Shown here one piece after another: positions 4,194 through 45,923 of a stretch of DNA of 64,000 nucleotides. The stretch lies in contig CP060228.1 in the NCBI GenBank assembly GCA_023898565.1, forward strand, positions 840,930 to 904,929, in the 5' to 3' direction. Numbering within the stretch: position 1 is the first letter of the stretch; each line of letters begins with the position of its first letter. The stretch is from Candidatus Nomurabacteria bacterium. GTDB taxonomy: Bacteria > Patescibacteriota > Minisyncoccia > Phycocordibacterales > UBA918. A program made the translations under genes and the position numbers. The notes under the pieces are model-generated. The model made no database searches. It had not been told where the DNA came from and saw nothing but the letters and a program-made list of their open reading frames with translations.

Positions 4194-4210
4194 TACAGTA
4201 GTCAGAATTT

Positions 4211-4514: not shown

Positions 4515-4518
4515 ATTC

Positions 4519-8415: not shown

Positions 8416-8434
8416 CAGTAGCGCTTTGTAAAAA

Positions 8435-8464
8435 CGCCCTGACGCAAAGCGCTCAGGGCGTTTT
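8435..8464. terminator. Bidirectional intrinsic terminator
   Basis: AAAACGCCCTGA-cgcaaagcgc-TCAGGGCGTTTT. An alternative outer hairpin AGCGCTTTG/CAAAGCGCT overlaps it. Confidence 0.7.
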
Positions 8465-8546
8465 AAATACTATAGCTTCATGAACCCGATGTACACGAAA
8501 GGTGGCTAAACGGAAGAGTATTGAAAACTAGGCAAAACACGCTTCA

Positions 8547-9245: not shown

Positions 9246-9328
9246 GCCAGTAGCATAAAGGTATTTGAAGTCAGTGTAAATTCACAGACCAGGATAAGCT
9301 ATGCTCTAGTGTTTGATATCATAGAGTA

Positions 9329-9838
9329 ATGGAAACCTTTCTTTTGCTTACTACTATTCTCAAGACCTTTGCTATATCACTTGGTGTTGGCTCATCAACG
9401 CTCGCCATTACCAACTTCTTCGTCGCCATCGCTGACGGTGAAATAGACGAAACCGAGCGACGCATGATGGGCGTTGTGTATATTGTTCTACGCATTGCCA
9501 TGGTGCTTATTCTTACCACAGTGGCGCTCCTCGTCGGCACTGAATATAGTGCTGTAGGCATTGCCCATCTGTCGGCATATTCATTAGCCGAGCTCACCGT
9601 GCTTTTTGTGTTGTATCTAAACGCGCTCCTCATGAGCGCCCATTTAGTACCCACGACAGTTGGCCCAGCATTTCAAGCCGGAAGTTGGTACGCACTCGGC
9701 ACACTCACCGCACTCGCAGCGGCGTCACACGCTGGATTTACGTATGTTCAGTTTCTGGTGAGCTATGTTGCATGGGTTATTTTAGCTATCGGCATCGTGA
9801 ATTTCATCATGGCAATTTTGAAAGCAAAGCGGGGGTAG
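9329..9838 (+). CDS. Small integral membrane protein (4–5 TM), unknown function
   Basis: Hydrophobic segments only. Confidence 0.4.
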   Translation: METFLLLTTILKTFAISLGVGSSTLAITNFFVAIADGEIDETERRMMGVVYIVLRIAMVLILTTVALLVGTEYSAVGIAHLSAYSLAELTVLFVLYLNALLMSAHLVPTTVGPAFQAGSWYALGTLTALAAASHAGFTYVQFLVSYVAWVILAIGIVNFIMAILKAKRG

Positions 9839-9844
9839 TAAATA

Positions 9845-9882
9845 CAAAACGGGCGGCACCCTTTGGGTGCCGCCCATTTTGT
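9845..9882. terminator. Bidirectional terminator with a roughly 20-bp near-perfect palindrome
   Basis: TACAAAACGGGCGGCACCC-ttt-GGGTGCCGCCCATTTTGTA. Confidence 0.75.
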
Positions 9883-9887
9883 ATTTA

Positions 9888-23663: not shown

Positions 23664-26492
23664 ATGAATAAACGATTTAATCACAAAACTATCGAGAAAA
23701 AGTGGCAAGACACCTGGAAGGAGAGTGGTATCTATAAAACCACCGATAACAGCACAAAACCTAAAACGTACGTGCTGGATATGTTCCCGTACCCGTCAGG
23801 CGAAGGCTTGCATGTCGGACACCCTAAGGGCTATATCGCGACCGACATCTACTCACGCTTCAAGCGCATGACTGGCCACGAAGTACTCCACCCGATGGGT
23901 TGGGATGCCTTTGGCTTGCCGGCAGAAAACTTCGCTATCAAGCACAAAGTGCACCCAAGCGCTGCAGTAGCGAAAAATGTGGCACGCTTTAAAGAACAAC
24001 TTGAAGTGCTCGGCTTTGACTATGACTGGTCACGCGAAATCAACACCACCGACCCAAACTACTACAAGTGGACACAGTGGATTTTTATCCAACTTTACAA
24101 GAAAGGCTTGGCCTACGAGAGCAATGAACCTATCAACTGGTGCCCAGGCTGCCAGACTGGCTTAGCAAATGAAGACTTAAATGCCGACGGCACCTGTGAA
24201 CGCTGTGATAGCGTCGTCGAAAAGAAGCCAATGCGTCAATGGGTGCTTAAAATTCGTGAGTACGCCGACCGCATGCTCGCAGACCTCGACACCCTCAATT
24301 GGCCAGAACATATCAAAGAGGCACAGCGCAATTGGATTGGCAAAAGCGAAGGAGCCGAGATTGATTTTACACTTTCAACTGGAGACACAGTGACTGTTTT
24401 CACGACACGTCCTGATACACTTTTTGGCGCTACGTACATGGTACTTGCACCAGAACACGAGCTGGTTTTTAAGCATCACGAGACTATCAGCAACTGGAAT
24501 GAGGTAGCAGCGTATGTAAAAGAAGCTGCAAACAAAAAAGAAATGGACCGCCTCGACGACACTAAGGAGAAGACCGGAGTGAAGCTTGAAGGTATTACTG
24601 CAACCAATCCAGCAACCGGTGAGGAGATTCCAGTCTATATTGCAGATTACGTACTTGCTTCGTACGGCACCGGCGCCATTATGGCTGTACCAGCTCATGA
24701 TGAACGTGACTTCGCGTTTGCGAAGAAGTTTGGGATTGAAGTTAGGCCAGTAGTCGGAAAAATTTTCAATCAATTTAAGAACGTTGAAGTGCATCGTCGT
24801 GGCGTATATGGGCTTATCACAAATGAGAATGGCGAGTATTTACTTCAGTATTTTAGAAACAAAAACTTTTATTGGTTGCCTGGCGGAGGTGTTGAAGGTG
24901 ACGAGTCTGAAGAAGACTGCCTAAAGCGAGAAATGGCTGAAGAAAGCGGTTTTGCATCATTTTCTACAGCCAAGAAAGTTGCAACTGTATTCTACGATCA
25001 CAATTCACGCAAAGATGGTAAGAGCGCTCGAAATAAAACGACCGTCTATCGTGCAACTGTTTCTACATCAGAGCAGGGCCATGTCTCACTTACTGATGAT
25101 GAAATTGCGGACGGCTTAGAATTAGTTTGGGTCGCTCCAGAGAAGCTAAATAAAACACTTGATGCTGGAGAAGCTTCACGTTCAGAGTTACTGAAGTATC
25201 TCATTAAATTTGATAGTGCCACTGCAAAACCAGAATGTGGCGCACTTCTTAACTCCGGCGAATTTGACGGCATGACCTCAGAGGAAGCGAAAGTCGCTAT
25301 TACTGAAAAAGTTGGTGGGCGACTTACTTCAACCTATAAAATTAAAGATTGGGTCTTTAGTCGTCAGCGCTACTGGGGCGAGCCAATTCCAATTGTGCAC
25401 TGTGATACCTGTGGAGCGGTGCCAGTGCCAGAAGAGCAGCTACCGGTGACGTTGCCGGACGTGGAGCAGTATGAGCCGGCCGGCGACGGCCAGAGTCCGC
25501 TTGCGAATATTTCGGATTGGGTGAACACCACATGTCCAGCGTGTGGCGGAGCCGGCCGGCGCGAGACCAACACCATGCCACAATGGGCAGGTTCTTCATG
25601 GTACTACCTCCGCTACATGGATCCACAAAATAACGACGCATTAGTTTCGAAAGAAAACGAACAATACTGGGCACCAGTCGATGTCTACGTAGGCGGTGAT
25701 CACGCAGTGCGTCATCTTATTTATGCGCGCTTCTGGCACAAATTCCTCTACGACATCGATGTTGTTTCTACCATCGAACCATTCCAGCGACTTGAGTTTC
25801 TTGGCTTCATCTTGGCGGAAGACGGCCGCAAGATGAGTAAACGTTGGGGAAATGTAATCAACCCGGATGACGTAGTAGCTATTGTGGGTGCGGACACCCT
25901 CCGTATCTATGAAATGTTCATGGGACCTTTTGAAAACACCATCGCCTGGAGCCAGGACGGCCTCGCGGGCGCAAGACGCTTCCTAGAGCGCCTCAATGGC
26001 CTTAGCGAGCACATTGGTGATGAACCTAAGGAAACTACTTCATTACTTCACAAAACTATTAAAAAAGTGACTGAGGACATTGAAGGCTTTAAGTTCAACA
26101 CTGCTATCAGCGCCATGATGATTTTCCTCAATCAGGCTGAGAAAACAGGCATCAGCAAAGAAAGTTACGAGACGTTCCTCAAGCTCCTCGCGCCATTCGC
26201 ACCACACATTACCGAAGAACTGTGGCACGAAGCAGGGAAGAGTGACAGCGTACACACCGGCATATTCCCAGTATTTGACGCATCGCTTGCGAAAGACGAT
26301 GTGGTTGTAATCGGCGTACAGTTTAACGGCAAGTCGCGCGGACAAATCGAAATCGCTCCCGACGCCACCGAAGCCGATGCTCTCGAGACCCTCAAAAGAG
26401 ACGAATCACTCGCCAAGCGAATTGACGGAAAAGAGATAAAAAAAGTCATTTACGTACCAGGCAGAATCCTTAATATTATCGTTCAAGAATAG
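23664..26492 (+). CDS. leuS: Leucyl-tRNA synthetase carrying an inserted Nudix hydrolase module of about 160 aa (nt ~24762–25239)
   Basis: Class I HIGH-type catalytic core (PYPSGEGLHVGHPKGY), CP1 editing region (TTRPDT...AHDERDF) and KMSKR-region homology. A complete Nudix box GGVEGDESEEDCLKREMAEESGF sits between the editing domain and the Leu-specific/catalytic continuation (LNSGEFDG...). Confidence 0.9.
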   Translation: MNKRFNHKTIEKKWQDTWKESGIYKTTDNSTKPKTYVLDMFPYPSGEGLHVGHPKGYIATDIYSRFKRMTGHEVLHPMGWDAFGLPAENFAIKHKVHPSAAVAKNVARFKEQLEVLGFDYDWSREINTTDPNYYKWTQWIFIQLYKKGLAYESNEPINWCPGCQTGLANEDLNADGTCERCDSVVEKKPMRQWVLKIREYADRMLADLDTLNWPEHIKEAQRNWIGKSEGAEIDFTLSTGDTVTVFTTRPDTLFGATYMVLAPEHELVFKHHETISNWNEVAAYVKEAANKKEMDRLDDTKEKTGVKLEGITATNPATGEEIPVYIADYVLASYGTGAIMAVPAHDERDFAFAKKFGIEVRPVVGKIFNQFKNVEVHRRGVYGLITNENGEYLLQYFRNKNFYWLPGGGVEGDESEEDCLKREMAEESGFASFSTAKKVATVFYDHNSRKDGKSARNKTTVYRATVSTSEQGHVSLTDDEIADGLELVWVAPEKLNKTLDAGEASRSELLKYLIKFDSATAKPECGALLNSGEFDGMTSEEAKVAITEKVGGRLTSTYKIKDWVFSRQRYWGEPIPIVHCDTCGAVPVPEEQLPVTLPDVEQYEPAGDGQSPLANISDWVNTTCPACGGAGRRETNTMPQWAGSSWYYLRYMDPQNNDALVSKENEQYWAPVDVYVGGDHAVRHLIYARFWHKFLYDIDVVSTIEPFQRLEFLGFILAEDGRKMSKRWGNVINPDDVVAIVGADTLRIYEMFMGPFENTIAWSQDGLAGARRFLERLNGLSEHIGDEPKETTSLLHKTIKKVTEDIEGFKFNTAISAMMIFLNQAEKTGISKESYETFLKLLAPFAPHITEELWHEAGKSDSVHTGIFPVFDASLAKDDVVVIGVQFNGKSRGQIEIAPDATEADALETLKRDESLAKRIDGKEIKKVIYVPGRILNIIVQE

Positions 26493-26583: not shown

Positions 26584-27609
26584 ATGATTTCATTTAAACC
26601 GAAACAAATTAGTAAGACCTTGCTAGAGGTTCTTCCTGAACGTGCCCGTGACGTGCTTGAAAAGCGCTACGGCCTTGGTAAAGACGGTGAAACTTTCACT
26701 CTTGAAGCCATTGGTCAGTCGTACGGGATTACTCGTGAGCGTGTACGCCAAATTGAGAACTACGGCATTCAGTCAATCCAGAAGTCCGATGCTTATAAGA
26801 AGCATTATGAGCTGTTTATTGAACTCCAAAAGCTCATCGATCAGCTCGGCGGCGGTCTCATTGCCGAACACGTGCTTCTTGATGAACTCTCAAGCGACCC
26901 AGCCACTCGCAATCATCTGTACTTCCTTTTGGTGGTAGGCGATCCATTCTACAAGAGTAAGGAAAATCCACAGTACGCCCATCGTTGGTTTACTGAGCGG
27001 AAAATTGCTGACAACGTAGAGAAGGCACTGCAAGCAGTCTATAAGAGCCTCAACCGTGACGAGCTCGTGAGCGAACACGAAATTGTTAACCGCTTTCGCA
27101 CAGAACTAGCAGAAATCGCTGCCGACCACAATGAAGAAGTGCTTAAACGCTGGCTCTCAATCTCAAAGCAGATTGGCCGCAATCCACTTGGCGACTGGGG
27201 TCCAGCGGATAGCCCAAATATTCGCGTAAAAGGAATCCGAGACTACGCGTACCTTGCGGTAAAGCGCCATGGCTCACCGATGCATTTCCGTGAAGTTGCA
27301 GAAGCAATTCAAGAACTCTTCGGCCACAAGGCCCATATTGCCACCACTCACAACGAACTCATCAAAGATGCGCGTTTCGTACTCGTAGGTCGCGGTCTTT
27401 ACGCACTTACTGAATGGGGGTACACAGCAGGCGTTGTTAAAGACGTACTCCGTGAGATTCTCGAGGCAGAAGGCCCTCTCTCGCGAGAAGAAATCATCGA
27501 CAAAGTGCGCAAGGAGCGATACGTGAAAGACAACACTATCCTCGTCAATCTTCAAGACACAAACCTCTTTAAGAAGCTCGCTAACGGCACATACACACTC
27601 GCTGAGTAG
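26584..27609 (+). CDS. DNA-binding protein: N-terminal sigma-70 region-4-like HTH plus C-terminal HARE-HTH (RpoE-delta N-terminal-like winged helix)
   Basis: ERARDVLEKRYGLGKDGETFTLEAIGQSYGITRERVRQIE resembles sigma region 4.2. C-terminal ...SPMHFREVAEAIQELFG...FVLVGRGLYALTEWGY is the HARE-HTH hallmark. Confidence 0.55.
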   Translation: MISFKPKQISKTLLEVLPERARDVLEKRYGLGKDGETFTLEAIGQSYGITRERVRQIENYGIQSIQKSDAYKKHYELFIELQKLIDQLGGGLIAEHVLLDELSSDPATRNHLYFLLVVGDPFYKSKENPQYAHRWFTERKIADNVEKALQAVYKSLNRDELVSEHEIVNRFRTELAEIAADHNEEVLKRWLSISKQIGRNPLGDWGPADSPNIRVKGIRDYAYLAVKRHGSPMHFREVAEAIQELFGHKAHIATTHNELIKDARFVLVGRGLYALTEWGYTAGVVKDVLREILEAEGPLSREEIIDKVRKERYVKDNTILVNLQDTNLFKKLANGTYTLAE

Positions 27610-30084: not shown

Positions 30085-31146
30085 ATGAAGAAAATGAAGA
30101 CAGTGTTTGTTGGACTTTCGGGCGGCGTGGACTCATCCGTGGCTGCTTTGCGATTGCAACGAGCTGGATACAATGTGGTCGGGGTGTTTATCAAGGTTTG
30201 GCATCCCGACTTTATGGTTTGCAACTGGGAGCAAGAACGGCTCGACGCCATGCGAGTGGCGGCACACCTGAATATTCCGTTTCTCACCTGCGATGCTGAA
30301 GCGGCCTATCGCGATGAAGTAGCTCAGTACTTCATCGAATCATACAAAGCTGGGCGGACGCCAAATCCCGATGTAATGTGTAATCAGCACGTGAAGTTCG
30401 GCGCCTTTTTGCGCTTTGCGCAGCAAAAAGGCGCCGACTTCATCGCCACCGGACACTACGCCAGACGCACAGATGGTGCGAAGGGACCAGAGATGCATCG
30501 TGGGGTTGACACAAATAAGGACCAAACGTATTTTCTCTGGACTCTTACACAAGAACAGCTTGAAATGACATTGTTTCCAGTCGGCGACACACCCAAGAAA
30601 CAAATTCGCCAGGAGGCGACAATAGCAGGCCTTCCGGTTGCCGAAAAAAAAGACAGTCAGGGTATCTGCTTCCTTGGACATGTAGATATTCCTGAGTTCC
30701 TCTCACACTATGTCAACTTAGTGCCTGGAGATGTTTTGAACGAAAACGGAGAGATGATTGGCACCCATCAAGGCGCGCTTGTATATACACTCGGACAGCG
30801 CCACGGCTTTACCATCACCACCCATAACACTGAGCGTCAGGCGATGTTCGTAACCGCAAAAGATATAGATGCAAATACCGTCACGGTGAGTAGTACTCAA
30901 CCAGAAACCACAGCAGACACCGCCATGACACTCGAAAACCCAATACTACGCACAACCGTGAGTGTAGGCGATACCGTTGAAGCACAGTTTAGATATCGTC
31001 AGACACCATGTACCGTCACTGTCGTAGAAGTTTCAGTCAATAAAATCATCATTGTTCCAGTGTCGCCAACCGCCAAACCAGCAGTTGGGCAATCCTGTGT
31101 ACTGTACCTAGGGTCACACTGCATCGGAGGTGGTATGATTGCGTAA
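30085..31146 (+). CDS. mnmA: tRNA-specific 2-thiouridylase MnmA
   Basis: PP-loop VFVGLSGGVDSSVAA, catalytic Cys region and overall MnmA length. Confidence 0.85.
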   Translation: MKKMKTVFVGLSGGVDSSVAALRLQRAGYNVVGVFIKVWHPDFMVCNWEQERLDAMRVAAHLNIPFLTCDAEAAYRDEVAQYFIESYKAGRTPNPDVMCNQHVKFGAFLRFAQQKGADFIATGHYARRTDGAKGPEMHRGVDTNKDQTYFLWTLTQEQLEMTLFPVGDTPKKQIRQEATIAGLPVAEKKDSQGICFLGHVDIPEFLSHYVNLVPGDVLNENGEMIGTHQGALVYTLGQRHGFTITTHNTERQAMFVTAKDIDANTVTVSSTQPETTADTAMTLENPILRTTVSVGDTVEAQFRYRQTPCTVTVVEVSVNKIIIVPVSPTAKPAVGQSCVLYLGSHCIGGGMIA

Positions 31147-31197: not shown

Positions 31198-32031
31198 ATG
31201 CCAACCCTTATCACAAAAGCTGACGGCACTTCTGAATATTTTAAAGTTGAGAAACTGCGACGATCCCTGAGACGGGCTGGCGCTGACCCTAAAGAGATAC
31301 ACGAAATCATCAGTGAAGTAGACAAAACCATCTACGAAGGCATTCGAACACAGGAAATCTACCGCTTTGCCTTTGACCTACTCCGCACAAGCAGACCACC
31401 TGCAGCAGCCCGTTATTCACTACGTCGCGCATTATTTAACCTTGGGCCAACTGGCTTTCCGTTTGAGCGTTTTTTGGCTCGTCTGTTTGCGCAGCAGGGT
31501 TACAAAACTGAAACAGGTATTACTATACGAGGCAAGTGTGCACCACACGAAATTGATGTAGCAGCGTACAAAAGTAACCACAGCTTTGTAGCAGAAGCTA
31601 AATTTCATTCTCGGCCTGGGGTAAAATCTGATTTGCAAGTTGCAATGTACTCATACGCACGCTTGCTGGACCTGCGCGGACAACAAGTCTGCACCGAAGA
31701 CATTTGCAGCATTCAAGAGTTTTGGCTCATTACTAACACAAAATTTACCACAACGGCTCAAGAGTACGGCGAATGTGTTGGACTCAACATGCTAAGTTGG
31801 GACTATCCAAAGCACGACAACCTGCACGATCGAATTCAACGCGCAGGTCTTTATCCAATCACTGTTCTGCAAGGCCTATCAGCCTCACAGGCCGAAACTC
31901 TTATAGCGAAAGACATTATTGTTTGTCGAGACTTGCTTGACAATGAACAAATGCTACGTCACCTCCGTATCTCAAAACGTAAACATGAGTCATTAATACA
32001 TGAAGCTCGCTTGCTTTGTGGTGAAAAATAA
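31198..32031 (+). CDS. ATP-cone domain fused to a restriction-endonuclease-like (Mrr_cat / PD-(D/E)xK) nuclease domain
   Basis: N-terminal LITKADGTSEYFKVEKLRRSL... fits the ATP-cone. The core FERFLARLFAQQGYK...EIDVAAYK...FVAEAKF fits the Mrr catalytic fold (D...E.K). Confidence 0.55.
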   Translation: MPTLITKADGTSEYFKVEKLRRSLRRAGADPKEIHEIISEVDKTIYEGIRTQEIYRFAFDLLRTSRPPAAARYSLRRALFNLGPTGFPFERFLARLFAQQGYKTETGITIRGKCAPHEIDVAAYKSNHSFVAEAKFHSRPGVKSDLQVAMYSYARLLDLRGQQVCTEDICSIQEFWLITNTKFTTTAQEYGECVGLNMLSWDYPKHDNLHDRIQRAGLYPITVLQGLSASQAETLIAKDIIVCRDLLDNEQMLRHLRISKRKHESLIHEARLLCGEK

Positions 32032-32122
32032 CGATAAAACTGCACGAATCTGTCAATGTTTTGCCACATCATGCCTGTGCTATACTCACGGCATTACTTA
32101 GTCAGCAAATCATTTTTTCTAT

Positions 32123-32656
32123 ATGGCAGCAGAAGAACAGCAAGACGGACAGAAGACCCTCGTGGCCTTTATTGTCGGACTTCTTATCGGCGGAATGTTA
32201 GTGTGGGCATTTTCTGGCCCAAGCGCGGCAGCTCCAACCACTGATAACGAGATCGTAACAACGGAGGAAGCGAGCGACGCTAGTGATGAAACAGCGCACT
32301 CAACCGAAACCGAAGCAGAAATAGCCATACCAACACTCGTGGTTGGAGAAGGTTCTGTTGAAGTGAAGGATCAAGCAGCAAGCGCAACCATAGCGCTTGA
32401 AAGTGCCGTGTATCCAGTAAGTGAAGGCTGGATCGGTGTACGTGAGTACAACGGTGATCAGCTTGGCTATATTCTTGGTGTTGTGCGCTTCAGCGAATCA
32501 CAAGGACTCGTGCCAGACGAAATTGTATTACAACGTGCAACCACTGCTGGCAACCGCTACGCAATTGTGATCTTTACGGAAGACGGAGATTTTGACTTCA
32601 ATCTCTCAGGTGACGTGCAAATCGACCAAATTTTCGACACCTTTGTTGCTCAATAA
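32123..32656 (+). CDS. Membrane-anchored extracytoplasmic protein, acidic, unknown function
   Basis: One N-terminal TM (LVAFIVGLLIGGMLVWAF), then an acidic Thr/Glu-rich linker and a beta-rich domain. Confidence 0.4.
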   Translation: MAAEEQQDGQKTLVAFIVGLLIGGMLVWAFSGPSAAAPTTDNEIVTTEEASDASDETAHSTETEAEIAIPTLVVGEGSVEVKDQAASATIALESAVYPVSEGWIGVREYNGDQLGYILGVVRFSESQGLVPDEIVLQRATTAGNRYAIVIFTEDGDFDFNLSGDVQIDQIFDTFVAQ

Positions 32657-32668
32657 GCTTGCATAGCA

Positions 32669-32712
32669 GGCACGAAAAAACTGGCCCTTAAAGGGCCAGT
32701 TTTTTCGTGCCT
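32669..32712. terminator. Bidirectional terminator, ~19-bp palindrome
   Basis: GGCACGAAAAAACTGGCCC-ttaaa-GGGCCAGTTTTTTCGTGCC. Confidence 0.75.
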
Positions 32713-32735
32713 CCCCTAAATGGTATACTGCATCC

Positions 32736-33521
32736 ATGGCTGAATACGTAAAAAAATACAACCCAAACCGACATGCCGACTGGAACTACGGCGGAGCAAA
32801 ATGGAAGCTCTCTCGCTCCAAAATTGACTTTTTCTTTGAGTGTCCGCGTTGCTTTTATCTTGATAATGTTCTTGGCACAAAGCGTCCAGGCTTTCCATCT
32901 TTTAACCTTAACATCGCCGTAGACGAACTCTTTAAAAAAGAATTCGATGTACACCGTGCCGCCAAAACCAAGCATCCTATTTTTGAGAAATACAATCTCG
33001 ACGCACTACCATTTGAGCACAAGAGCATGGACGAGTGGCGCGATCCGTTTGTTGGCATCATGCACACACACGAGCCAACTGGCCTCATAGTAAGTGGAGG
33101 AGTCGACGATATTTGGGTTACGTCAGAAGGCAAGCTTATTATTGCTGACTACAAATCAACCTCCAAAGAAGGAAAGATTGAAAAACTGGGCGACTCACCT
33201 TGGGAACAGCAGTACACTCGCCAGCTTGGCGTCTACCGTTGGCTCCTAGAGCAGAATGGTTTTGAGGTAGAGAAAACTGGCTACCTGGTGTACGCCAACG
33301 CCAGCAAAGACGAACCTGGCTTTGACGACAAACTTGTATTTGATACCACGCTCGTACCAGTGACAACTGACATCTCATGGATTGAGCCAGCCCTAATGGA
33401 TATCAAGGCCTGCTTGGACCGTAAGGACTTACCGCCAACCGGCCCGAGCTGCGAATTCTGCCCCTACCGTGAAGCTTCTGGGAAGAAACTCCAAGCGATT
33501 CATTTCGCAAATAAAAAGTAA
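32736..33521 (+). CDS. Cas4/RecB-like PD-(D/E)xK nuclease with a four-Cys (Fe-S type) arrangement; standalone, no CRISPR
   Basis: N-terminal CPRC, core GGVDDIW...EGKLIIADYKST (D, E, K), the QhxxY motif QQYTRQLGVYRW, and C-terminal C...CEFCPY. Confidence 0.6.
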   Translation: MAEYVKKYNPNRHADWNYGGAKWKLSRSKIDFFFECPRCFYLDNVLGTKRPGFPSFNLNIAVDELFKKEFDVHRAAKTKHPIFEKYNLDALPFEHKSMDEWRDPFVGIMHTHEPTGLIVSGGVDDIWVTSEGKLIIADYKSTSKEGKIEKLGDSPWEQQYTRQLGVYRWLLEQNGFEVEKTGYLVYANASKDEPGFDDKLVFDTTLVPVTTDISWIEPALMDIKACLDRKDLPPTGPSCEFCPYREASGKKLQAIHFANKK

Positions 33522-33574
33522 TTGACACCAGATATTTATGTTGTAGAATACACAAAAGTTCTTAGGAGAGTCAG

Positions 33575-33910
33575 ATGGAAGCAACCGAAATTGAAACGGT
33601 TAAGTTTGCCTATATTGGCCTACTCTGGTTAAGTCTTTGGATACTCTATGCGCCCAACTGGGGAATGTACATTCTTGCAGTACCGCTTGGAGTTTGGGCT
33701 GGCGCAGGATATCCGGACATACTTACACTTAATGAGATAAGGCCTTCTTTCACGCAAATTTTAAGCATTGAGACATGGCCTCTTATTGTGATTATAGCAA
33801 AGCTGTTTGCATGCATCACTGCCAGCTTCATAATCCTACTGGCAACTCTCATATTTCTAATCAAATTATGGAAGCTGCTCTCAAAAGCAGTACTTAAAAG
33901 CACCGGTTGA
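33575..33910 (+). CDS. Small membrane protein (3 TM), unknown
   Basis: RBS GGAGAG before the ATG; preferred over the overlapping minus-strand ORF. Confidence 0.4.
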   Translation: MEATEIETVKFAYIGLLWLSLWILYAPNWGMYILAVPLGVWAGAGYPDILTLNEIRPSFTQILSIETWPLIVIIAKLFACITASFIILLATLIFLIKLWKLLSKAVLKSTG

Positions 33911-33930
33911 AACACCGGTGTTTTCGTTTA
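33896..33930 (+). terminator. Intrinsic terminator
   Basis: CACCGGT-tgaaac-ACCGGTGTTTTCGTTT. Confidence 0.6.
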
Positions 33931-33940
33931 TCATATACAC

Positions 33941-34198
33941 ATGAAATCCTTCACCGAATCAGTACGCGAAGTGGTAAAAAGCATCCCGACCGGAAAGACT
34001 ATGACCTACGCTGAGGTTGCCAAGGCAGCAGGGAATGAGAAAGCCGCCCGGGCAGTGGCCAACATCATGGCGGCCAATTATGACCCCGAGATACCATGCC
34101 ACCGCGTCATTCGCTCTGACGGTGCACTGGGTGGATACAACAGAGGTGGAGAAGAGGCAAAGCGCCGCTTGTTAGCAAGCGAAGGTGTTGTATTATAG
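33941..34198 (+). CDS. Standalone MGMT-family DNA-binding domain protein (Ogt C-terminal-like, active-site PCHRV)
   Basis: MTYAEVAKAAGNEKAARAVANIMAANYDPEIPCHRVIRSDGALGGY. Confidence 0.75.
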   Translation: MKSFTESVREVVKSIPTGKTMTYAEVAKAAGNEKAARAVANIMAANYDPEIPCHRVIRSDGALGGYNRGGEEAKRRLLASEGVVL

Positions 34199-34505
34199 CT
34201 ATATGGATCAAGGCTACGAACGTGACCGCATCAAAGCACAAATGGAGCAACTGCAGCGTGAGCACGAACAGTTGAATTTTACTATCTCACGAGAAAAAAA
34301 TAGCGAGCTTTACGAAGTGGAGAAGTTAAAGCGTGAGTTTAAAAGAAAAATTGAAACAGCCGAAAATAGGCAACGGGAAATACAGCTTGAAATTGCGAAC
34401 AAGAAGATAGAACTAACCAGAATTGAAAACAGACTGCGAGAAGCTGCGGCTCCAAATCAAATCTCCAAAGTCGCAGAAGATCGAGCCCGCAGACGAAGAT
34501 TTTAG
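34185..34505 (+). CDS. Hypothetical coiled-coil protein (106 aa)
   Basis: Charged heptad-rich sequence with an Arg-rich C-terminus. Confidence 0.35.
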   Translation: MLYYSYMDQGYERDRIKAQMEQLQREHEQLNFTISREKNSELYEVEKLKREFKRKIETAENRQREIQLEIANKKIELTRIENRLREAAAPNQISKVAEDRARRRRF

Positions 34506-34516
34506 CAACCACTTGT

Positions 34517-35104
34517 ATGTACACCTACAAAGTCGAACAAGCCATCAAAGCTGCCGCAATCTTACACCAAGACCAACTTCGAAAGGGGCCCGCACAGCTA
34601 CCTTATGTTACTCATCTCGTAGCAACCATGCTTATCCTGCGTGACTACACCAGCGACGAAACCACTCTAGTCGCCGCCCTTCTTCACGACACACTCGAAG
34701 ACACCGACTACACATATGACGAGCTTGTTGATGATTTCGGAGAAGAGGTGGCAAAAATTGTAAAAGTGGTAACTGAGCCAAGAGGGCCAGAGTATAAGCA
34801 CCTCTCTTGGATAGAGATTAAAAAACAATATGCAAATCAACTCAAGCAAGGTCCTCTTGAAGCAGTCATGATTGCCGCTGCTGACAAATCACACAACTTC
34901 CGTACTATGGTCGAAGACTACTATGAAAATCACGATTTATTCCTTCGTGAGTTTGGCACTGATCTAGACGGTCGTCTTGAAGCATATCAGACTATCGCAA
35001 ACGCCATCAACAGCCGACTGTCTGATGGTATAGTACACGAGTTCAATCACACGTTTAAAGAGTTTAAAGAATTCATTTTCAATGTCAAAGAAAGCATCGA
35101 GTAA
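34517..35104 (+). CDS. HD-domain phosphohydrolase, RelA/SpoT-hydrolase-like (small alarmone hydrolase candidate)
   Basis: YVTHLVATMLIL...ALLHDTLEDT matches the SpoT HD motif. Confidence 0.65.
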   Translation: MYTYKVEQAIKAAAILHQDQLRKGPAQLPYVTHLVATMLILRDYTSDETTLVAALLHDTLEDTDYTYDELVDDFGEEVAKIVKVVTEPRGPEYKHLSWIEIKKQYANQLKQGPLEAVMIAAADKSHNFRTMVEDYYENHDLFLREFGTDLDGRLEAYQTIANAINSRLSDGIVHEFNHTFKEFKEFIFNVKESIE

Positions 35105-36903
35105 GAAATTTACCTATACACCAACCAATGAACTTCCACCCCTTAGTACCATCAAGACCGAGTGGGATTTGGCTAGTCATTACTACCAAAGCGAAGATGA
35201 CCCACAAATTGAAAAAGACGCAAAAGCGTACGAAAAAGCCGTAAGGGCCTTTGTTAAAAAGTACCAAACCAGCGACTTTACGAGCAATGAAGAAAAACTC
35301 TTCGCTGCACTCAAAGACAGCGACAAGCTCGAAGAACTAGCAACTGGCAGCAAAATTGTGCGCTACTTCTCATTTAGAGGAGTATTAGACGTGAACGACA
35401 ATGCTGCGAACCGAAAACTTGCCCAGTTTGGTGAACGATTCAGAAAACTTGGTAACGAAATGCTGTTCTTTCCACTGCAAATTGGAAAAATTGACATTGC
35501 GACGCAAAAGAAATACTTACAAAGCGAACTTTTAAGTCCATATCGCTACCTCTTAAAGCAAAACTTTGAGGATGCAAAGCATCATCTTAGCGAAGCCGAG
35601 GAGCGAATTTTGAGCTTACGATCAAACACGTCGAGCGGAATGTGGGCGGATGCGGTTGAAAAAATTATCAGCAACCGCTCGGTAACTTTCAAAAAGGAAA
35701 CTATTCCTGTGCCAGAAGCACTTGAACGCATGGACGCACTTTCTTGGAATGATAAGAACACGCTTTGGAATCTCATTCTGCTAGAAATGAAGCAAATCAG
35801 TGAAGTTGCAGAACATGAACTAACTGCCATTGTTACGCACAGCAAAGTCAGCGATGAACTACGAAAGTACAAAAAACCATATTCTGCTACGGTGCAAGGA
35901 TATGAAAACAATGAAAAAGCGGTTGAGGCACTCGTTGATGCTATTTCTACTAAAGGCTTTGCCCTCAGTAAGAAATTTTACAAACTAAAGGCCAAGCTTC
36001 ATAAGCTTTCTTCTATTCCTTACGCCAATAAGTACGATCCTATTGGTGATTTGAGTCATCCAGATTTTGAAACTGCGGTACGCGCATGTCGCGACACATT
36101 TTACGGACTAGATGAAGAATTCGGAAAAATTTTCGATCGCATGCTCGAGAATGGTCACATTGACGCGTTTCCTAAGAAGGGGAAGCGGGGCGGTGCCTTT
36201 ATGTCGGCAACAATCGGCTTACCAACCTACGTCATGCTCAATCACACCACAGACTTCAAGTCTTTGGAGACTATGGCGCATGAAGTCGGCCATGCTATTC
36301 ATGCAGAATTTAGCAAAGTGCAGCCTGCTATATACGAAGAATTTTCAACTACAACTGCCGAAACTGCCAGCACACTCTTTGAGCAATTGACCATGCGTAA
36401 ATTGCTTGACGTGTTACCCGACGAACAAAAAGTGATCTTCTTGCACAACAAAATCTCTCGTGACATTGCTACCGTGCAGCGACAAATTGCATTTTTCAAT
36501 TTTGAACTTGAGATGCATGAACACATTCGAGCACATGGCCTAGCCACAAAAGAAGAGCTGGCAGCAATGATGAAAAAGCATCTAGAATCGTATCTCGGAG
36601 AGGGTGTAACCGTCACCGAAGATGATGGGTACTCTTACGTGTACATTCCACATATTCGTTACGGCTTTTACGTGTACACCTACTCATACGGACACCTTGT
36701 TAGTAACCTAATGATTAAAAAAGTGACAGCTGATCCAGCCTATCTCGGCAAAATTAAAAAATTCCTGCACGCCGGTGGAAGCGACACCGTCGAAAACATC
36801 TTTAAGTCAATTGGTATCAACACTAATAAAGTTGAAACATTTCTAGAGAGTCTTAAAACCCAAGAAGAGGAAATTAAGGAGCTAGAGAAGCTTACTAAAA
36901 AAC

Positions 36904-36911
<8 letters not shown>
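35082..36911 (+). CDS. pepF: Oligoendopeptidase F (M3B family zinc metallopeptidase)
   Basis: HEXXH motif MAHEVGHAIH; 609-aa length and architecture typical of PepF. Confidence 0.75.
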
Positions 36912-39351
<2,440 letters not shown>

Positions 39352-39355
<4 letters not shown>

Positions 39356-40866
39356 ACTACTGCTTCGTTAGTTATAAAATCATGTTTAAAATCCTCGATG
39401 ATTTCTTTCACCCGAACTTTTGTCTTCTCGTCAAAAGTGCCAGTGGCAATTTTCTTAAGCAGAGCACGATGGCGACTTCTAAAGAGTTCGAGTAGATAAT
39501 TCATAAAGTGACTCCAAGTATTTTCACTAAAGTCATCAAAGAAACCATGTTCGACCGCATAGAAAAGCACAGCCTGCTCAGCAAATGTAACGCAAGTGTG
39601 TTTATCTTGCTTCAGTAAATCTAACAGGAGATTACCGCGGTGAATTTCATTTTTAACCGACTCACTTACCGTAGTTTCAAGCTGCGAAAGTTTCTGCAGC
39701 TCCTTGTGTTGCGCGAGTGCTAACCGAATACCGCTAAGCACTTCTTTAAGGACCGGCGGCTGCACCTGCGAACCAACACGCGACACTGACAAGCCGACAT
39801 TAACCGCTGGCAAAAAATTCTTCTGAAACAGACCACGCTCAAGGTACACCTGACCGTCAGTAATCGAAATAATATTTGTCGGGATATAGGCAGTCACATC
39901 GCCTTCAAGGGTCTCGATAATCGGCAGGGCAGTGAGTGAGCCGCCACTTTGATCATCAGATAATTGTGCGGCGCGCTCCAAGAGCGTGGCATGAAGCGCA
40001 AAAACATCACCCGGATAGGCTTCACGTCCCGGCACACGACCAAGAATAAGTGAGATATCGCGGTACACTTTGGCATGACGAGACAAATCATCGTACACCA
40101 CAAGTGCATCGCGCCCAGAATTACGAAAATGCTCAGCGACCGTACAGCCCACAAACGGCACAATGTACTGTGCGAAGTACGAATCATTAGTCGTAGCCGC
40201 CACCACAGTGGAGTAGAGGAGAGCATTGTTTTCCTCGAGGTCGTTCACGAGCTCATCAAGCTTCTGTGTACGCTGACCACACGATACATAAATACAATAC
40301 ACCGGCTCAGCCTCATGTTTTTGATTAAGCACAATATCGGTAGCAATGGTGCTTTTCCCAAGCTTACGATCACCGATGATTAGCTCACGCTGACCTCTCC
40401 CGAGCGGTAAAGTAGCATCAATTACCTTAATACCAGTCATGAGCGGGCGCGTAATTGGCTTACGATGAATAATTGGCGGCGCCTCCAAAAAGACAGAGGT
40501 CTCGACGCCATCGGGGACCGGCGCAAAGCCATCAAGCGGCTCTGAAAGCGCGTTTACCACGCGGCCAATATACGCATCTGATACCGACACTGAAAATTGC
40601 TTACCCGTGCGATAGACCGGCTGGGTGGTGTCAAAATGAGCGTCGATAAATAACGCTTCTACATACTCGTCCGTAAAACCAATTACTAATGCTGCCGGCT
40701 GATGATTTGTGTCTTCTAACAACTCATGAATAAACACTTCTGCCAGACCAGAGAGTTTCGCTACACCAGCATAAAACGTGACAATCTGCCCCGTATTCTT
40801 TTTTGTGTGCCTAACGTGACTCATGATGCGCATGCACTTCAGCAAGTCGCTGGTTAATTTGAGCAA
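39352..40866 (-). CDS. atpA: F-type ATP synthase alpha subunit
   Basis: GDRKLGKSTIATDIVLNQK (Walker A region); 504 aa. Confidence 0.9.
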
Positions 40867-41191
40867 TTACCGCTTCCTTTTCGGCGGCTGATTCCTGCTG
40901 CGCCTGCATACGAATATCTTCTGCAACTGCTTCAGCCTCAGCAATAATTTCTTTCGCTTGGTTGCGACTTTTAGTCATGTACTGCTTTTCTTTCTCAGCA
41001 AGTTTGGCAGCTTTGTCTGCAAGCTCAGCTTCGACAACCGCAGCCTTTTCTAGCGATGCTTCATCTGCTTCAATCCGCTTGATGAGCGGGCGATAGACAA
41101 ACTTGGTAAGCACAAATAGCAACAATACAAAATTAATCAGCTGTGCAATCAGCAATCCAATATCAATACCTAAATTCCCGAGAAAGTGCAT
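40811..41191 (-). CDS. atpF: F-type ATP synthase subunit b (short, 126 aa)
   Basis: One N-terminal TM plus a charged Ala/Glu/Lys-rich helix. It overlaps the annotated atpA start by 56 nt. Confidence 0.65.
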   Translation of the reverse strand: MHFLGNLGIDIGLLIAQLINFVLLLFVLTKFVYRPLIKRIEADEASLEKAAVVEAELADKAAKLAEKEKQYMTKSRNQAKEIIAEAEAVAEDIRMQAQQESAAEKEAVIAQINQRLAEVHAHHESR

Positions 41192-41236
41192 ACAAAACTA
41201 ATCGGACACGTTGTCCGTCAACCAAGAGGGCGTTTG

Positions 41237-41452
41237 TTATCCAACAAACTTAAGAATGAGCGCTACCACCAGTACGTAAATAGCAATCGCTTCGGCAAAA
41301 GCAATCGCGATAATCATTGCCAGCTGAATCTTGTCGGAATTGTCTGGATTGCGCCCCATAGCGATAAGCGCGGCCGCACCAATCATGCCGATGGCAATCG
41401 CAGGGCCAATGGAGCCAATCGCAATCGCAAATGCTGAAGGATCTTGAATCAT
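41237..41452 (-). CDS. atpE: F-type ATP synthase subunit c
   Basis: Two-helix hairpin with the Gly-rich GSIGPAIAIGMIGAA and a conserved carboxylate helix. Confidence 0.8.
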   Translation of the reverse strand: MIQDPSAFAIAIGSIGPAIAIGMIGAAALIAMGRNPDNSDKIQLAMIIAIAFAEAIAIYVLVVALILKFVG

Positions 41453-41512
41453 AAAAATTTCTTACTACCTCTTTACTAAAAGTATACCAAGGACAAATCG
41501 TGATACGCGCGA

Positions 41513-42262
41513 TTATCCTCTTTCTGTTGGCAAATGCTCAGTACTGAGCCGCACAAAGGTAAGTGCGAGCACGCAGAAGATATAGGCTTGAATCAGGCTA
41601 ATAAAAAACTCCAGCACCATAAACGGCACCGGGAGAATGTACGGCACAAGAAACGCAATCACGATGAGCAGCACCTCGCCAGCAAACACATTGCCGAAGA
41701 GACGAAATGAAAACGAAAGGATACGCATGCTTTCTGACATTGCTTCAAACAAGCCGAGGATAAACGGAATAATGCCTGAGAAATTGAAAAAGTGTTTGAG
41801 ATAGCCCTGCCAACCACTTGCTTTCACTGCAAACCATTGAATCGAGAAGACGGTCACAATAGCGAGCGCAAGCGTGGTGGTAAGGTCGCTATTTGGCGAG
41901 CGAAAGAGTGACACCTCGCCAGCATCGGTCGCAACGTAAAAAGAACCCAAAAAACCCGGCAACAAAGCAATGAGATTAGTGGTAAAGATAAATAGAAAGA
42001 GTGTCGCAATGAGCGGCAACACGCGCTTTGAAAGTGCGCGACTTTGCGTGACCGTATCAGCGAGTCGGAGCAGCTCCATCACAATGATATGCCAACCTTT
42101 CAGCAGCACATTACTATTCTCAGACTCTCGCCGATGCACATGGTAGTACCAAGCCAAACCCATCAAGAGCAGTGAGGCAACCAAAGTCGTAAAAAACGTA
42201 TTGGTAATTAAAAACCCAAACACGGAGAGCACATATTCAGACTGAATACTAATGCCGGGCAT
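41513..42262 (-). CDS. atpB: F-type ATP synthase subunit a
   Basis: LSFSFRLFGNVFAGE contains the conserved Arg. Confidence 0.85.
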   Translation of the reverse strand: MPGISIQSEYVLSVFGFLITNTFFTTLVASLLLMGLAWYYHVHRRESENSNVLLKGWHIIVMELLRLADTVTQSRALSKRVLPLIATLFLFIFTTNLIALLPGFLGSFYVATDAGEVSLFRSPNSDLTTTLALAIVTVFSIQWFAVKASGWQGYLKHFFNFSGIIPFILGLFEAMSESMRILSFSFRLFGNVFAGEVLLIVIAFLVPYILPVPFMVLEFFISLIQAYIFCVLALTFVRLSTEHLPTERG

Positions 42263-44580: not shown

Positions 44581-44589
44581 AGGTTGTGT

Positions 44590-44640
44590 GTTGTGAAAAC
44601 GACGGCCGGGCCCAAAGGGCCCGGCCGTCGTTTTCACAAC
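44590..44640. repeat. 51-nt perfect GC-rich palindrome (24-bp arms, 3-nt loop) immediately after alaS
   Basis: GTTGTGAAAACGACGGCCGGGCCC-aaa-GGGCCCGGCCGTCGTTTTCACAAC, read directly from the sequence. Confidence 0.8.
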
Positions 44641-44690
44641 TATCACATCGGACTGATAAATGCGCTCACGTATGCTGTTATACTATCTGC

Positions 44691-45923
44691 ATGTCACTCT
44701 TTGGACTCAAGAAAAGCACCGACAGGTACGGCGTGCTCATTGACATTGGCTCAGGCAGCGTACTCACCGCCATCATATATTCCAATCCTAAAAATAAATA
44801 TCCTTTCATTATCTGGTCGCATCGAGAGCACGCCCCTTTGCGCAATATTGACTCACTCGAACAGAGTGCTAAAGCAGTCATGACTGCCTTAATGAATTCA
44901 TCAATGCGTCTTGACGCAGAAGGAAGAAAAGCTTTGTTTGACTACGACCAAGCCGCTGTCCTTAGTGAACTTCAGTGCAGCATTGCTGCACCTTGGGCAT
45001 ACACCGTCACCAAAACCATTAATTACAAGCAAGGAGCACCTTTCATCATCACTGAAGAACTGCTCGAAGAACTCACAAGCACAATCAACAAAAAGGTAGA
45101 AAACGACTTAGCTTCTAGTGCTGCTCTAAAAGACCTCGGCTTGCAGGCAATCACGCGAAACACCATGGATATGCTGTCAAACGGTTATCGCGTTCAGGAT
45201 CCTGAGGGTGAACAAGCAACCGAACTCACCCTATCAAAAACAACGGTTGTCACTCAAGAGTATTTGATAGACGCGATAACCGAAATGCAAAACAAGCTCT
45301 TCCCAAATACAGCAGCGCGTAAGTTGTCTTTTATACTTATGCTCTACGCAGTAACCCGCAGACTCCTTAATCAAAGCTATGACGTATGCCTCATAGATAT
45401 CACATACGAAGCGACTGAAATTGGCATTGTGCGTGATGGCGTACTCTCATACTGCACACACGCTCCATTTGGCTCTTTCTCACTCGCGCGAGAAATCTCA
45501 GCTGTCACAGGAGTTCCTCTGCACGAAGCGTTTGGATACCTACATACCGAGTCACCATATAGCTTTATCAAATCACTCCCGGACAATCAACAGGGGCAAA
45601 TTGAGTCTGTTTTTGATGCGTATATACAACAAATTAGCAAACTCTTCCACGAAACTGGTGACTCACTTTCAATTCCTAAGCAAATTTCGCTTCACGCTGA
45701 CTTAAACAGTGAAACACTCTTTTCTGACTTAATTGAAAAAGCAGTTAAACGATCAATCAAAAGCGAACCACGCATTATGCCTATTTCACAAGAAATCCTA
45801 CAACAGACATATGAGACGATTGACCCCGCCACAAAAAAGCAACTCCCCAAAGATACTGCGCTGCTTTTGTCAGCACAATTCTTCCATGACCAACTCAGTG
45901 CACACAGCTTTGAGTACCTTTAA
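44691..45923 (+). CDS. Actin-like ATPase (ASKHA fold), FtsA/PilM-like
   Basis: VLIDIGSGSVLTAII and a second phosphate motif CLIDITYEATEIGIVRDG...PFGSFSL. The start is set at Met 44691 after the palindrome. Confidence 0.5.
   Translation: MSLFGLKKSTDRYGVLIDIGSGSVLTAIIYSNPKNKYPFIIWSHREHAPLRNIDSLEQSAKAVMTALMNSSMRLDAEGRKALFDYDQAAVLSELQCSIAAPWAYTVTKTINYKQGAPFIITEELLEELTSTINKKVENDLASSAALKDLGLQAITRNTMDMLSNGYRVQDPEGEQATELTLSKTTVVTQEYLIDAITEMQNKLFPNTAARKLSFILMLYAVTRRLLNQSYDVCLIDITYEATEIGIVRDGVLSYCTHAPFGSFSLAREISAVTGVPLHEAFGYLHTESPYSFIKSLPDNQQGQIESVFDAYIQQISKLFHETGDSLSIPKQISLHADLNSETLFSDLIEKAVKRSIKSEPRIMPISQEILQQTYETIDPATKKQLPKDTALLLSAQFFHDQLSAHSFEYL

Follow-up and report, generated by a model that had tools for sequence, protein, structure and literature searches.

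A predicted ATP-cone–nuclease fusion and its gene neighborhood in a Candidatus Nomurabacteria genome

Introduction

The ATP-cones of NrdR and of ribonucleotide reductase (RNR) are nucleotide-sensing domains that undergo nucleotide-dependent oligomerization. Here we describe a gene of a Candidatus Nomurabacteria bacterium, designated g1, whose product is predicted to fuse such a domain to a PD-(D/E)xK nuclease of the kind represented by AF1548 of Archaeoglobus fulgidus, together with the six open reading frames (ORFs; g2–g7) that follow it. The seven ORFs occupy the plus strand at 31198-35104 of a 64,000-nucleotide stretch of contig CP060228.1 (assembly GCA_023898565.1), referred to as the window, and all positions without other designation are those of the window. 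We favor, with moderate confidence, the reading that these genes form a vertically inherited housekeeping array of independent members, in which g1 is a nucleotide-gated nuclease, probably acting in nucleic-acid turnover or salvage, and g3, g5 and g7 are unremarkable representatives of known enzyme families. The domains, conserved residues, hairpins, synteny and near-absence from mobile elements are observations, and the gating ligand, the substrates and the physiological role are inferred from them.

The closest described protein is AF1548 itself (PDB 1Y88, PF22357), which has the same nuclease core and C-terminal domain as g1 and the same predicted D/E/K residues. Its aligned part (199 aa) starts past the end of the g1 ATP-cone, and AF1548 is therefore without the sensor; it is also functionally uncharacterized. 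The sole useful match of a literature search on AF1548 is the Global Ocean Sampling (GOS) paper, which predicted a restriction-endonuclease fold with catalytic residues D38/E51/K53 (PMC1821046). With the ATP-cones of NrdR and class I RNR, g1 shares the fold, the K...E.F...KL signature and the threonine corresponding to T55 of NrdA; it differs from them in having a PD-(D/E)xK output rather than a Zn-ribbon or a reductase, and an alanine instead of arginine after the invariant lysine. The CARF/SAVED-nuclease effectors Can2, Card1/VC1899 and Cdn1 likewise join a small-molecule sensor to a PD-(D/E)xK nuclease, but the ATP-cone is unrelated to CARF and g1 has no CRISPR or CBASS context, such that the resemblance is one of mechanism and not of family.

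Cas4, EXO5, AdnAB/AddB and Dna2 carry an Fe-S cluster that bridges the N- and C-terminal parts of the protein, and in Cas4, AddB and EXO5 the canonical cysteine layout is one N-terminal plus three C-terminal residues (C...CxxCxxxxxC). Like human EXO5, AdnAB/AddB and Dna2, which process DNA ends, g3 is predicted to have a RecB-like fold, at only 10-18% identity to them and without a helicase partner domain. It also resembles the solo-Cas4 proteins that are common in Candidate Phyla Radiation (CPR) genomes without CRISPR, are mostly vertically inherited and have no arms-race signature (Hudaiberdiev et al. 2017, PMC5704561): it is a standalone RecB-family protein with four cysteines and no CRISPR locus, vertically inherited and under purifying selection, but it scores above cut-off for PF12705 only and its cysteines are arranged as CxxC...CxxC. 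The g5 product corresponds to the complete C-terminal DNA-binding and active-site domain of Ogt and MGMT, including the PCHRV motif; it is without the N-terminal domain of Ogt and Ada-C and, unlike alkyltransferase-like (ATL) proteins, keeps the acceptor cysteine. The g7 product shares the HD_4 domain and the HD, ED and DKxHN motifs of SpoT/RelA hydrolase and of the small alarmone hydrolases, and differs from SpoT/RelA in being a single 195-aa domain with no synthetase or regulatory domains.

Domain architecture and conservation of g1

An earlier note, prepared from these nucleotides without database searches, had described six of the seven genes at these positions on the plus strand, and their positions and domain architectures are borne out (Table 1). 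For g1 it proposed an ATP-cone fused to a Mrr_cat-type PD-(D/E)xK endonuclease. The ATP-cone scores above its family cut-off, and both the fusion and the PD-(D/E)xK assignment stand; the Mrr_cat assignment does not. Mrr_cat (PF04471) reaches 20.8 bits (E 4.3e-4), just short of its cut-off of 21, the Mrr N-terminal domain is not present in g1, and AF1548 is a far better match, on which grounds membership of the Mrr family was rejected. Residues 91-275 match the sequence of PDB 1Y88 with E 1.4e-32 (phmmer), and because this is joined by the AF1548-like_C match while Mrr_cat falls below its threshold, 'AF1548-type PD-(D/E)xK nuclease' is the more accurate description.

Structural comparison agrees with this assignment. 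The AlphaFold (AF2) model of g1 has a predicted local distance difference test (pLDDT) score of 84, with helices at the C-terminus (residues 229-274), and its best Foldseek match is 1y88 (E 1.7e-14, template modeling (TM) score 0.76), followed by the nuclease parts of the ligand-gated effectors Cdn1, Can2 and VC1899. The N-terminus, consisting of four helices and a beta-hairpin, superimposes on the ATP-cones of NrdR (9fxk, 9a6n) and RNR with a root-mean-square deviation of 2.5-2.9 Å over 81 residues, and the model also fits the cones of E. coli NrdA.

Conservation was assessed in an alignment of 39 representatives at 33-69% identity. Within the ATP-cone, K7 and G10 do not vary, conservation reaches at least 90% at F15, K19 and T51, and E13 is the consensus residue; T51 is the counterpart of T55 of NrdA, which together with K9, R10, E15 and K21 we take to be the nucleotide-contacting residues of the RNR ATP-cone. 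In the nuclease core the catalytic candidates E118, D120, E133 and K135 are all invariant, and they align with the residues D38/E51/K53 predicted for AF1548 (PMC1821046). Further invariant positions are the linker motif LGPxGFPFE and residues Y151, R155, D158, N180, W201, P204 and P220. We read g1 as a sensor–nuclease fusion with an intact predicted active site, which by analogy with NrdR and RNR probably works through nucleotide-dependent oligomerization. The ATP-cone would bind ATP or dATP and shift the oligomeric state, and this change would switch the E-x-D...E-x-K site on or off, beside a helical C-terminal domain that is presumed to bind nucleic acid.

The same parts could be assembled into a protein that is not an enzyme, in which g1 would be an NrdR-like nucleotide-sensing DNA-binding regulator and the nuclease fold and C-terminal domain would serve in DNA binding only. 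NrdR, the best-understood standalone ATP-cone protein, is a repressor whose DNA binding is set by ATP/dATP-dependent oligomerization, and the helical C-terminal domain of g1 would suit such a role. Retention of E-x-D...E-x-K along with Y151, R155, D158 and N180 in sequences down to 33% identity is, however, the pattern of an active enzyme, and outside of the CPR g1 appears to be translationally coupled to a nuclease (with a 4-nucleotide (nt) overlap in Criblamydia; see below). We consider a purely regulatory g1 to be most improbable.

The g1 family is large and constant in architecture. A database clustered at 90% identity contains 3636 matches; identities among the best 120 range over 69-90% and lengths over 275-291 aa, and all of these 120 have a precomputed PF03477 assignment. 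Exhaustive HMMER searching recovers 1198 clusters at 50% identity (438 with E <1e-30), nearly all of them ~280 aa in length and matched end to end. The g1 product itself has a 100% identical counterpart in Candidatus Kaiserbacteria, to which NCBI gives the name 'ATPase'; the other NCBI name in use for the family is 'ATP cone domain-containing protein'. For the AF1548-fold nuclease part there is a crystal structure, and a literature search found no paper that connects ATP-cones with nucleases, restriction enzymes or the CPR. It is the joining of an ATP/dATP sensor to an apparently intact PD-(D/E)xK nuclease, throughout so large a family, that makes g1 worth attention.

Gene neighborhoods and inheritance in Patescibacteria

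Relatives of g1 were identified in at least 597 genomes by a scan of one genome per species, and the best 80 loci (designated L001, L002 and so forth) were analyzed, 42 of them from Patescibacteria and 38 from Bacteroidota. The order of genes in the window is leucyl-tRNA synthetase (LeuRS), a sigma-70 region 4 (sigma-r4)/HARE-HTH protein, a membrane protein, MltG/YceG, MnmA, g1–g7, PepF, an ATP synthase operon on the opposite strand, and alanyl-tRNA synthetase (AlaRS). The upstream part of this order is widely shared among the Patescibacteria loci, with MnmA in 39/42, MltG in 37/42, the membrane protein in 35-36/42 and the sigma-r4/HARE-HTH protein in 33/42. MnmA is the most persistent neighbor, and in all 39 of these loci it lies directly 5' of the g1 homologue.

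The segment from g1 to PepF or AlaRS is by comparison a mosaic, and behaves as a variable slot in which g2, an MgtC-family protein, g3, g5, uracil-DNA glycosylase (UDG) and g7 may be found in varying combinations, together with PepF or, in its place, two M16 peptidases. Homologues of g2 are present in 21-23 of the 42 loci, g3 in 22, g5 in 21 and g7 in 18; UDG, which is absent from the window, occupies the slot in nine loci from more distant relatives. Genes are lost from the slot one at a time, leaving for example g1-g3-UDG (L032), g1-g5 (L052) or g1-UDG-PepF (L042 and L063), and in three loci (L021, L060 and L061) PepF follows g1 directly with nothing between them. The linkage of g1 to g3 is seen in 22/42 Patescibacteria loci and in 0/38 Bacteroidota loci, and thus the neighborhood that the earlier note took as a possible module is linked within one Patescibacteria clade and scattered beyond it, an outcome that the note itself had named as refuting its reading.

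Both g1 and g3 are conserved to the same degree as MnmA. Over loci L001-L017 the mean identity to the window protein is 64% for g1, 70% for g3 and 67% for g5, compared to 63% for MnmA and 55% for MltG, and the identities of g1 and g3 follow those of MnmA or the sigma-r4 protein with a Pearson r of 0.90-0.98. The two genes have descended vertically under strong purifying selection. GC content is flat across the window (0.43-0.50) with no island signature, and the tRNA genes of the window are ~26 kb from g1–g7, none being closer.

The recurrence of repair-type genes in the slot requires separate consideration. At least one of g3, g5 and UDG lies within 5 kb 3' of g1 in 28/42 Patescibacteria loci, including L026, L036, L050 and L053, where g1 is only 43-46% identical. 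A loose repair-flavored cluster is therefore ancestral to the region, its genes coming and going singly. The earlier note's alternative suggestion of a repair cluster is supported to this extent: the genes do recur in the slot, and the cluster is a loose one. In our reading g3 and g5, with the UDG of relatives, are the remains of an ancestral and loosely kept DNA-repair cluster. A stronger version, which is the main rival to the reading favored here, is that of a true DNA-repair module in which g1 is an ATP/dATP-gated structure- or damage-specific endonuclease, co-regulated or used together with the g3 exonuclease, g5 and UDG. The structural neighbors of g3 (Cas4, AdnAB, EXO5, Dna2 and AddB) are DNA-end-processing nucleases and the AF1548 fold falls within the restriction-endonuclease-like superfamily, both of which would fit. 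Yet the unrelated MnmA, MltG, PepF and AlaRS genes are kept at least as faithfully in the same loci, the slot genes are lost individually, a strong terminator conserved in position separates g1-g2 from g3, and in the 38 Bacteroidota loci g1 is never beside g3, g5 or UDG, with an RNase-type beta-CASP protein there instead. We regard a dedicated repair module as unlikely.

Partners of g1 outside the Patescibacteria

None of g2–g7 is found in any of the 38 Bacteroidota loci. In 30-31 of these g1 is followed directly by a beta-CASP nuclease gene, the product of which is closest to Ribonuclease TTHA0252 (E 1e-71), and a P-type ATPase is often nearby. Genes encoding universal stress proteins (Usp) lie near the g1/beta-CASP pair in 28/38 loci, positioned upstream in tandem arrays of one to five; the proteins are ~280 aa long with a double Usp domain, and a PAS histidine kinase and a receiver-cNMP-Crp regulator are often encoded further upstream. 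This Usp, kinase and Crp-type context suggests that g1 of Bacteroidota belongs to a stress or hypoxia regulon.

Plasmid-borne copies of g1 are rare, with two among 72,556 plasmids, one from Criblamydia (Chlamydiota) and one from Pontibacter. In both, g1 is part of a tight four-gene operon together with genes for a metallo-beta-lactamase (MBL)/beta-CASP protein, a thymidine-phosphorylase-family protein and a ribose-phosphate-pyrophosphokinase-like (Prs-like) protein, at 5995-10602 of the Criblamydia locus (L081) and 1972-6597 of the Pontibacter locus (L082). The genes of the Criblamydia operon overlap by 1-4 nt, with g1 overlapping its nuclease partner by 4 nt. The Criblamydia operon is flanked by genes for phosphoketolase, glycogen phosphorylase, acetate kinase and glucoamylase. 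The four-gene set is also present in L079 and L080 and in L054 (10001-16086), where it is accompanied by PPK2, phosphofructokinase (PFK) and a 2-hydroxyacid dehydrogenase.

The phosphorylase partner is closest to PDB 4GA5/4GA4 (E 3e-103), compared to 1e-40 for ordinary pyrimidine nucleoside phosphorylases. We take PDB 4GA4-4GA6 to be the AMP phosphorylase of Thermococcus kodakarensis, an identification that a literature search did not confirm, the PDB label being 'putative thymidine phosphorylase'. No description of an operon of g1, beta-CASP, AMP-phosphorylase-like and Prs-like genes, apparently a module for nucleic-acid catabolism and energy reserve, was found in the literature search. The context of g1 outside of the CPR points to catabolism of RNA to nucleoside monophosphates (NMP) and on to ribose under stress, and not to defense or DNA repair.

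Proposed role of g1

Because its partners outside of the CPR include a beta-CASP RNase, AMP-phosphorylase-like and Prs-like enzymes and Usp proteins, g1 most likely acts in the turnover of nucleic acid in response to nucleotide or energy status, rather than in restriction of foreign DNA. A broader proposal, which we put forward tentatively and hold to be possible rather than probable, is that the ATP-cone/AF1548 family, with at least 1198 clusters and members in at least 597 species genomes, constitutes an unrecognized class of energy- or nucleotide-charge-gated nucleases, acting in the CPR as a core gatekeeper of nucleotide salvage. On this proposal a fall in ATP, or a shift in the dATP/ATP ratio, would lead g1 to open up nucleic acid, probably RNA, to breakdown. 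Its substrates would pass, in Bacteroidota and Chlamydiota, to the co-translated beta-CASP RNase, and in a subset of loci an AMP-phosphorylase-like step would follow, such that stored RNA could be drawn on under stress for ribose, phosphate and energy. CPR bacteria carry an archaeal-type nucleoside pathway with AMP phosphorylase and RuBisCO (PMC5113843, PMC6389311), and a family of this kind would fit their dependence on scavenged nucleotides. The operon context of g1 provides in any event a testable hypothesis, that cells gate the self-digestion of nucleic acid by energy or nucleotide status, and this bears on the balance of nucleotide salvage in the ultra-small bacteria of the CPR.

Several points weigh against the reading of g1 as a turnover nuclease within an array of independent genes. 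Beta-CASP, Usp, AMP-phosphorylase-like, Prs-like and PPK2 genes are absent from the window and from the 42 Patescibacteria loci, and to carry the role suggested elsewhere over to g1 of the CPR is an extrapolation. The counterpart of R10 in RNR/NrdA is alanine in g1 and in most members of the family, which makes it uncertain whether the ligand is ATP, dATP or some other nucleotide. The literature search found no biochemical or experimental paper on any member of the g1 family. The frequency with which g3, g5 or UDG accompanies g1 leaves room for a real connection with repair, and the separate transcription units described below would still be compatible with a joint function.

Relationship to defense systems

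The earlier note raised the possibility of an uncharacterized defense module coupling g1 to the Cas4-like g3. Here g1, as a restriction-type nuclease gated by ATP/dATP, would respond to perturbation of the nucleotide pool during infection by cutting DNA, and g3 would process the ends. The architecture of g1 is like that of ligand-gated defense nucleases (Can2, Cdn1 and VC1899 in the Foldseek comparison), g3 gives weak matches to the PADLOC Cas4 models (best E 9.6e-11), and a role in 'defense or repair' has been suggested for the solo-Cas4 of small genomes (PMC5704561). The comparative data are nonetheless contrary to such a module. There is no significant PADLOC match for g1 (best E 0.033) and none for g2, g4, g5 or g7; against PHROGs, g1 has no meaningful match and g3 matches generic phage exonuclease families only. 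Relatives of g1 are absent from 50,697 phage records (INPHARED) and from IMG/VR, and the two plasmid loci are catabolic operons and not defense islands. As noted previously, no CRISPR locus is present in the window, with neither CRISPR-like nor tandem repeats found in the 64 kb by Tandem Repeats Finder (TRF) and a direct-repeat search, and no cas domain or methyltransferase was found in the neighboring or large ORFs scanned.

The distribution of the genes is also unlike that of a mobile or modular system. Instead of a patchy occurrence, g1 shows vertical divergence, high conservation, constant length, a location within a conserved housekeeping array of uniform GC, and near-absence from mobile elements, and its neighbors in Bacteroidota are stress and catabolism genes. 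The genes do not co-occur as one unit, given that their linkage is confined to one clade, their loss is piecemeal and a terminator intervenes between g2 and g3. The proposed coupling of g1 to g3 in defense is not upheld, and we judge an anti-phage role to be very unlikely. As a candidate defense island the region can be set aside, its genes belonging to known families and the standalone Cas4-like gene of the CPR being already in the literature.

The g3, g5 and g7 proteins

The earlier note described g3 as a Cas4/RecB-like nuclease with D/E/K and QxxxY motifs and a cluster of four cysteines. The match to PDDEXK_1 (PF12705) is strong, at 44.4 bits against a cut-off of 22 (E 2.6e-11), and the motifs are confirmed as conserved in 23 diverse and 52 close homologues (D124/D125, D138-Y-K140 and Q163...Y167). 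Both Cas4 models, by contrast, fall below their cut-offs (PF01930, 20.4 vs 22.7 bits; TIGR00372, 34.6 vs 65 bits), and it is because of these curated thresholds that g3 is placed in PF12705 rather than in Cas4 proper. The four conserved cysteines are in a 2+2 arrangement, C36-x2-C39 ... C239-x2-C242, and not the 1+3 arrangement (CxxCxxxxxC); C226 varies.

Homologues of g3 number 7596, the best 120 being 74-94% identical and 259-290 aa long, and g3 is 100% identical to a Candidatus Kaiserbacteria protein. Single-sequence and profile searches against solved structures gave nothing real, and g3 is placed among them by fold comparison alone: its model (pLDDT 86.7) is nearest to Cas4 (7mi4, 8d3l, 4ic1), AdnAB, human EXO5, Dna2 and AddB by Foldseek, with modest similarity (E 1e-5 to 1e-3, TM 0.42-0.47). 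It fits the description of solo-Cas4 (PMC5704561), and its features are best explained by a predicted solo Cas4/EXO5-like end-processing nuclease.

For g5, the earlier identification of a standalone MGMT-like domain with PCHRV is well supported, with DNA_binding_1 (PF01035) matching residues 4-83 at 102.2 bits (E 1.3e-29), TIGR00589 matching at 78.1 bits against a cut-off of 46.4, and PCHRV present in the sequence. The N-terminal domain of canonical Ogt and Ada-C is not present in this 85-aa protein, which is best explained as a putative minimal suicide alkyltransferase. The SpoT-like HD hydrolase proposed for g7 is likewise in agreement with the database matches, with PF13328 (HD_4) at 59 bits against 27.2 (E 6e-16) and TIGR00691 over positions 1-122 (E 8e-23), and the HD, ED and DKxHN motifs are in place. 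The best explanation is a small hydrolase, putatively of the SpoT type.

Transcriptional organization

The features of the region are listed in Table 1. We read the seven genes as at least four transcription units (g1-g2; g3; g4; g5-g6-g7-pepF), in accord with the earlier proposal of separate units. The 91-nt spacer between g1 and g2 has no significant structure (z 0.0), and the two genes probably share one transcript; at the other end, g7 and pepF overlap by 23 nt. The earlier note placed strong terminators on both sides of the Cas4-like gene, and both hairpins are real, with the second following the overlooked ORF g4 rather than g3. A single operon of g1–g7 was considered and rejected because of the hairpins that follow g2 and precede g5, each of them conserved in position in relatives.

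Between g2 and g3 the closest relative also has a hairpin in the same place (L083, ~2255-2300; -40.8 kcal/mol), and in L001 (~11476-11535) a hairpin of other sequence, with a 28-bp stem and -62.4 kcal/mol, is present there; the hairpin before g5 has a counterpart at the equivalent position in L083. Because the g2|g3 hairpin recurs at the same place in both L083 and L001, g1-g2 appears to be insulated from g3 in several lineages. This hairpin is kept by position and not by sequence, with perfect stems of 21-28 bp, A6/T6 flanks and -41 to -62 kcal/mol, a strength far beyond the needs of an ordinary intrinsic terminator.

Table 1. Positions in the window of g1–g7, their domains, regulatory features and immediate context genes.
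Feature	Coordinates	Strand	Evidence or remarks
mnmA (tRNA 2-thiouridylase), context gene	30085..31146	+	Pfam tRNA_Me_trans, E 4.7e-73
g1, ATP-cone + AF1548-type PD-(D/E)xK nuclease + AF1548-like C-terminal helical domain (predicted), 277 aa	31198..32031	+	
g1 ATP-cone, residues 5-77	31210..31428	+	PF03477, 35.4 bits vs cut-off 25.8, E 1.6e-8
g1 PD-(D/E)xK core, residues ~86-205	31453..31812	+	Catalytic candidates E118, D120, E133, K135
g1 AF1548-like C-terminal helical domain, residues 219-271	31852..32010	+	PF22357, 35.3 bits vs 23.9, E 1.2e-8
g2, membrane-anchored acidic protein, no assigned family, 177 aa	32123..32656	+	
Intrinsic-terminator hairpin between g2 and g3	32668..32712	+	21-bp stem, A6/T6 flanks, -41.5 kcal/mol, z -7.6
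g3, standalone RecB-family (PDDEXK_1) nuclease, Cas4/EXO5/AddB-like, 2+2 Cys (predicted), 261 aa	32736..33521	+	
Promoter-like site 5' of g4	33522..33549	+	TTGACA-16-TAGAAT, 11/12 consensus matches; consensus match alone
g4, orphan hydrophobic ORF, 111 aa	33575..33910	+	
Terminator hairpin 3' of g4, directly 5' of g5	33897..33924	+	11-bp stem + T-run, -15.3 kcal/mol, z -4.0
g5, single-domain O6-alkylguanine-DNA alkyltransferase (predicted), MGMT C-terminal domain with PCHRV, 85 aa	33941..34198	+	
g6, small coiled-coil protein	34185..34505	+	Alternative ATG start at 34205
g7, HD_4 SpoT-type hydrolase domain protein (predicted), small-alarmone-hydrolase-like, 195 aa	34517..35104	+	
pepF-type M3 oligoendopeptidase, context gene closing the variable slot	35082..36911	+	Peptidase_M3, E 1.5e-30

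Other genes of the region

The remaining three genes of the slot are without strong family assignments. In the product of g2 a single hydrophobic helix at the N-terminus precedes an acidic stretch, and we place it as a membrane-anchored acidic protein; the earlier note described a secreted acidic protein. It has no match in Pfam, NCBIfam, PADLOC or PHROGs, and the homologues that follow g1 in other Patescibacteria loci are 27-71% identical. The g6 product gives weak matches to SMC, leucine-zipper and coiled-coil families, in line with its earlier description as a coiled-coil protein, and is poorly conserved, with a homologue in L001 alone at 42% identity. The g4 ORF has no tblastn match in the 80 related loci and is missing from the closest relative (L083, 90% identical), where the gap between g3 and g5 is 46 nt. 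It is a lineage-specific insertion, and could be either a recent insertion or a de novo gene. At the site of g4, relatives hold only a spacer of 30-46 nt and a terminator.

In the upstream block, the most conserved gene is the 341-aa sigma-70 region 4/HARE-HTH protein (26584-27609), whose identity over L001-L017 averages 79% with a maximum of 90%, above that of MnmA, MltG, g1 and g3. The LeuRS gene (23664-26492, 942 aa) encodes a NUDIX hydrolase domain at residues 377-504 (~24792-25175; E 1.9e-12), which interrupts the protein immediately past the editing domain. Only three loci, L001, L009 and L011, have an alignable counterpart of this insert, with 35-45% identity; for most of the other loci of Patescibacteria ~residues 365-525 are missing from the LeuRS alignment, and this is therefore a variable insertion site.

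Downstream of the slot, the ATP synthase operon (36904-42262, minus strand) sits between PepF and AlaRS. In most relatives AlaRS is within ~1 kb after PepF or the M16 peptidases, and ATP synthase genes occupy a comparable place only in L004; here the conserved backbone has been locally rearranged. Two ORFs of ~445 aa located 3' of AlaRS (44586-45923 and 45949-47295) have no Pfam match, and judged by position and length alone they appear to match two unannotated ORF clusters found after AlaRS in Patescibacteria, c13 (16 loci) and c30 (9 loci).

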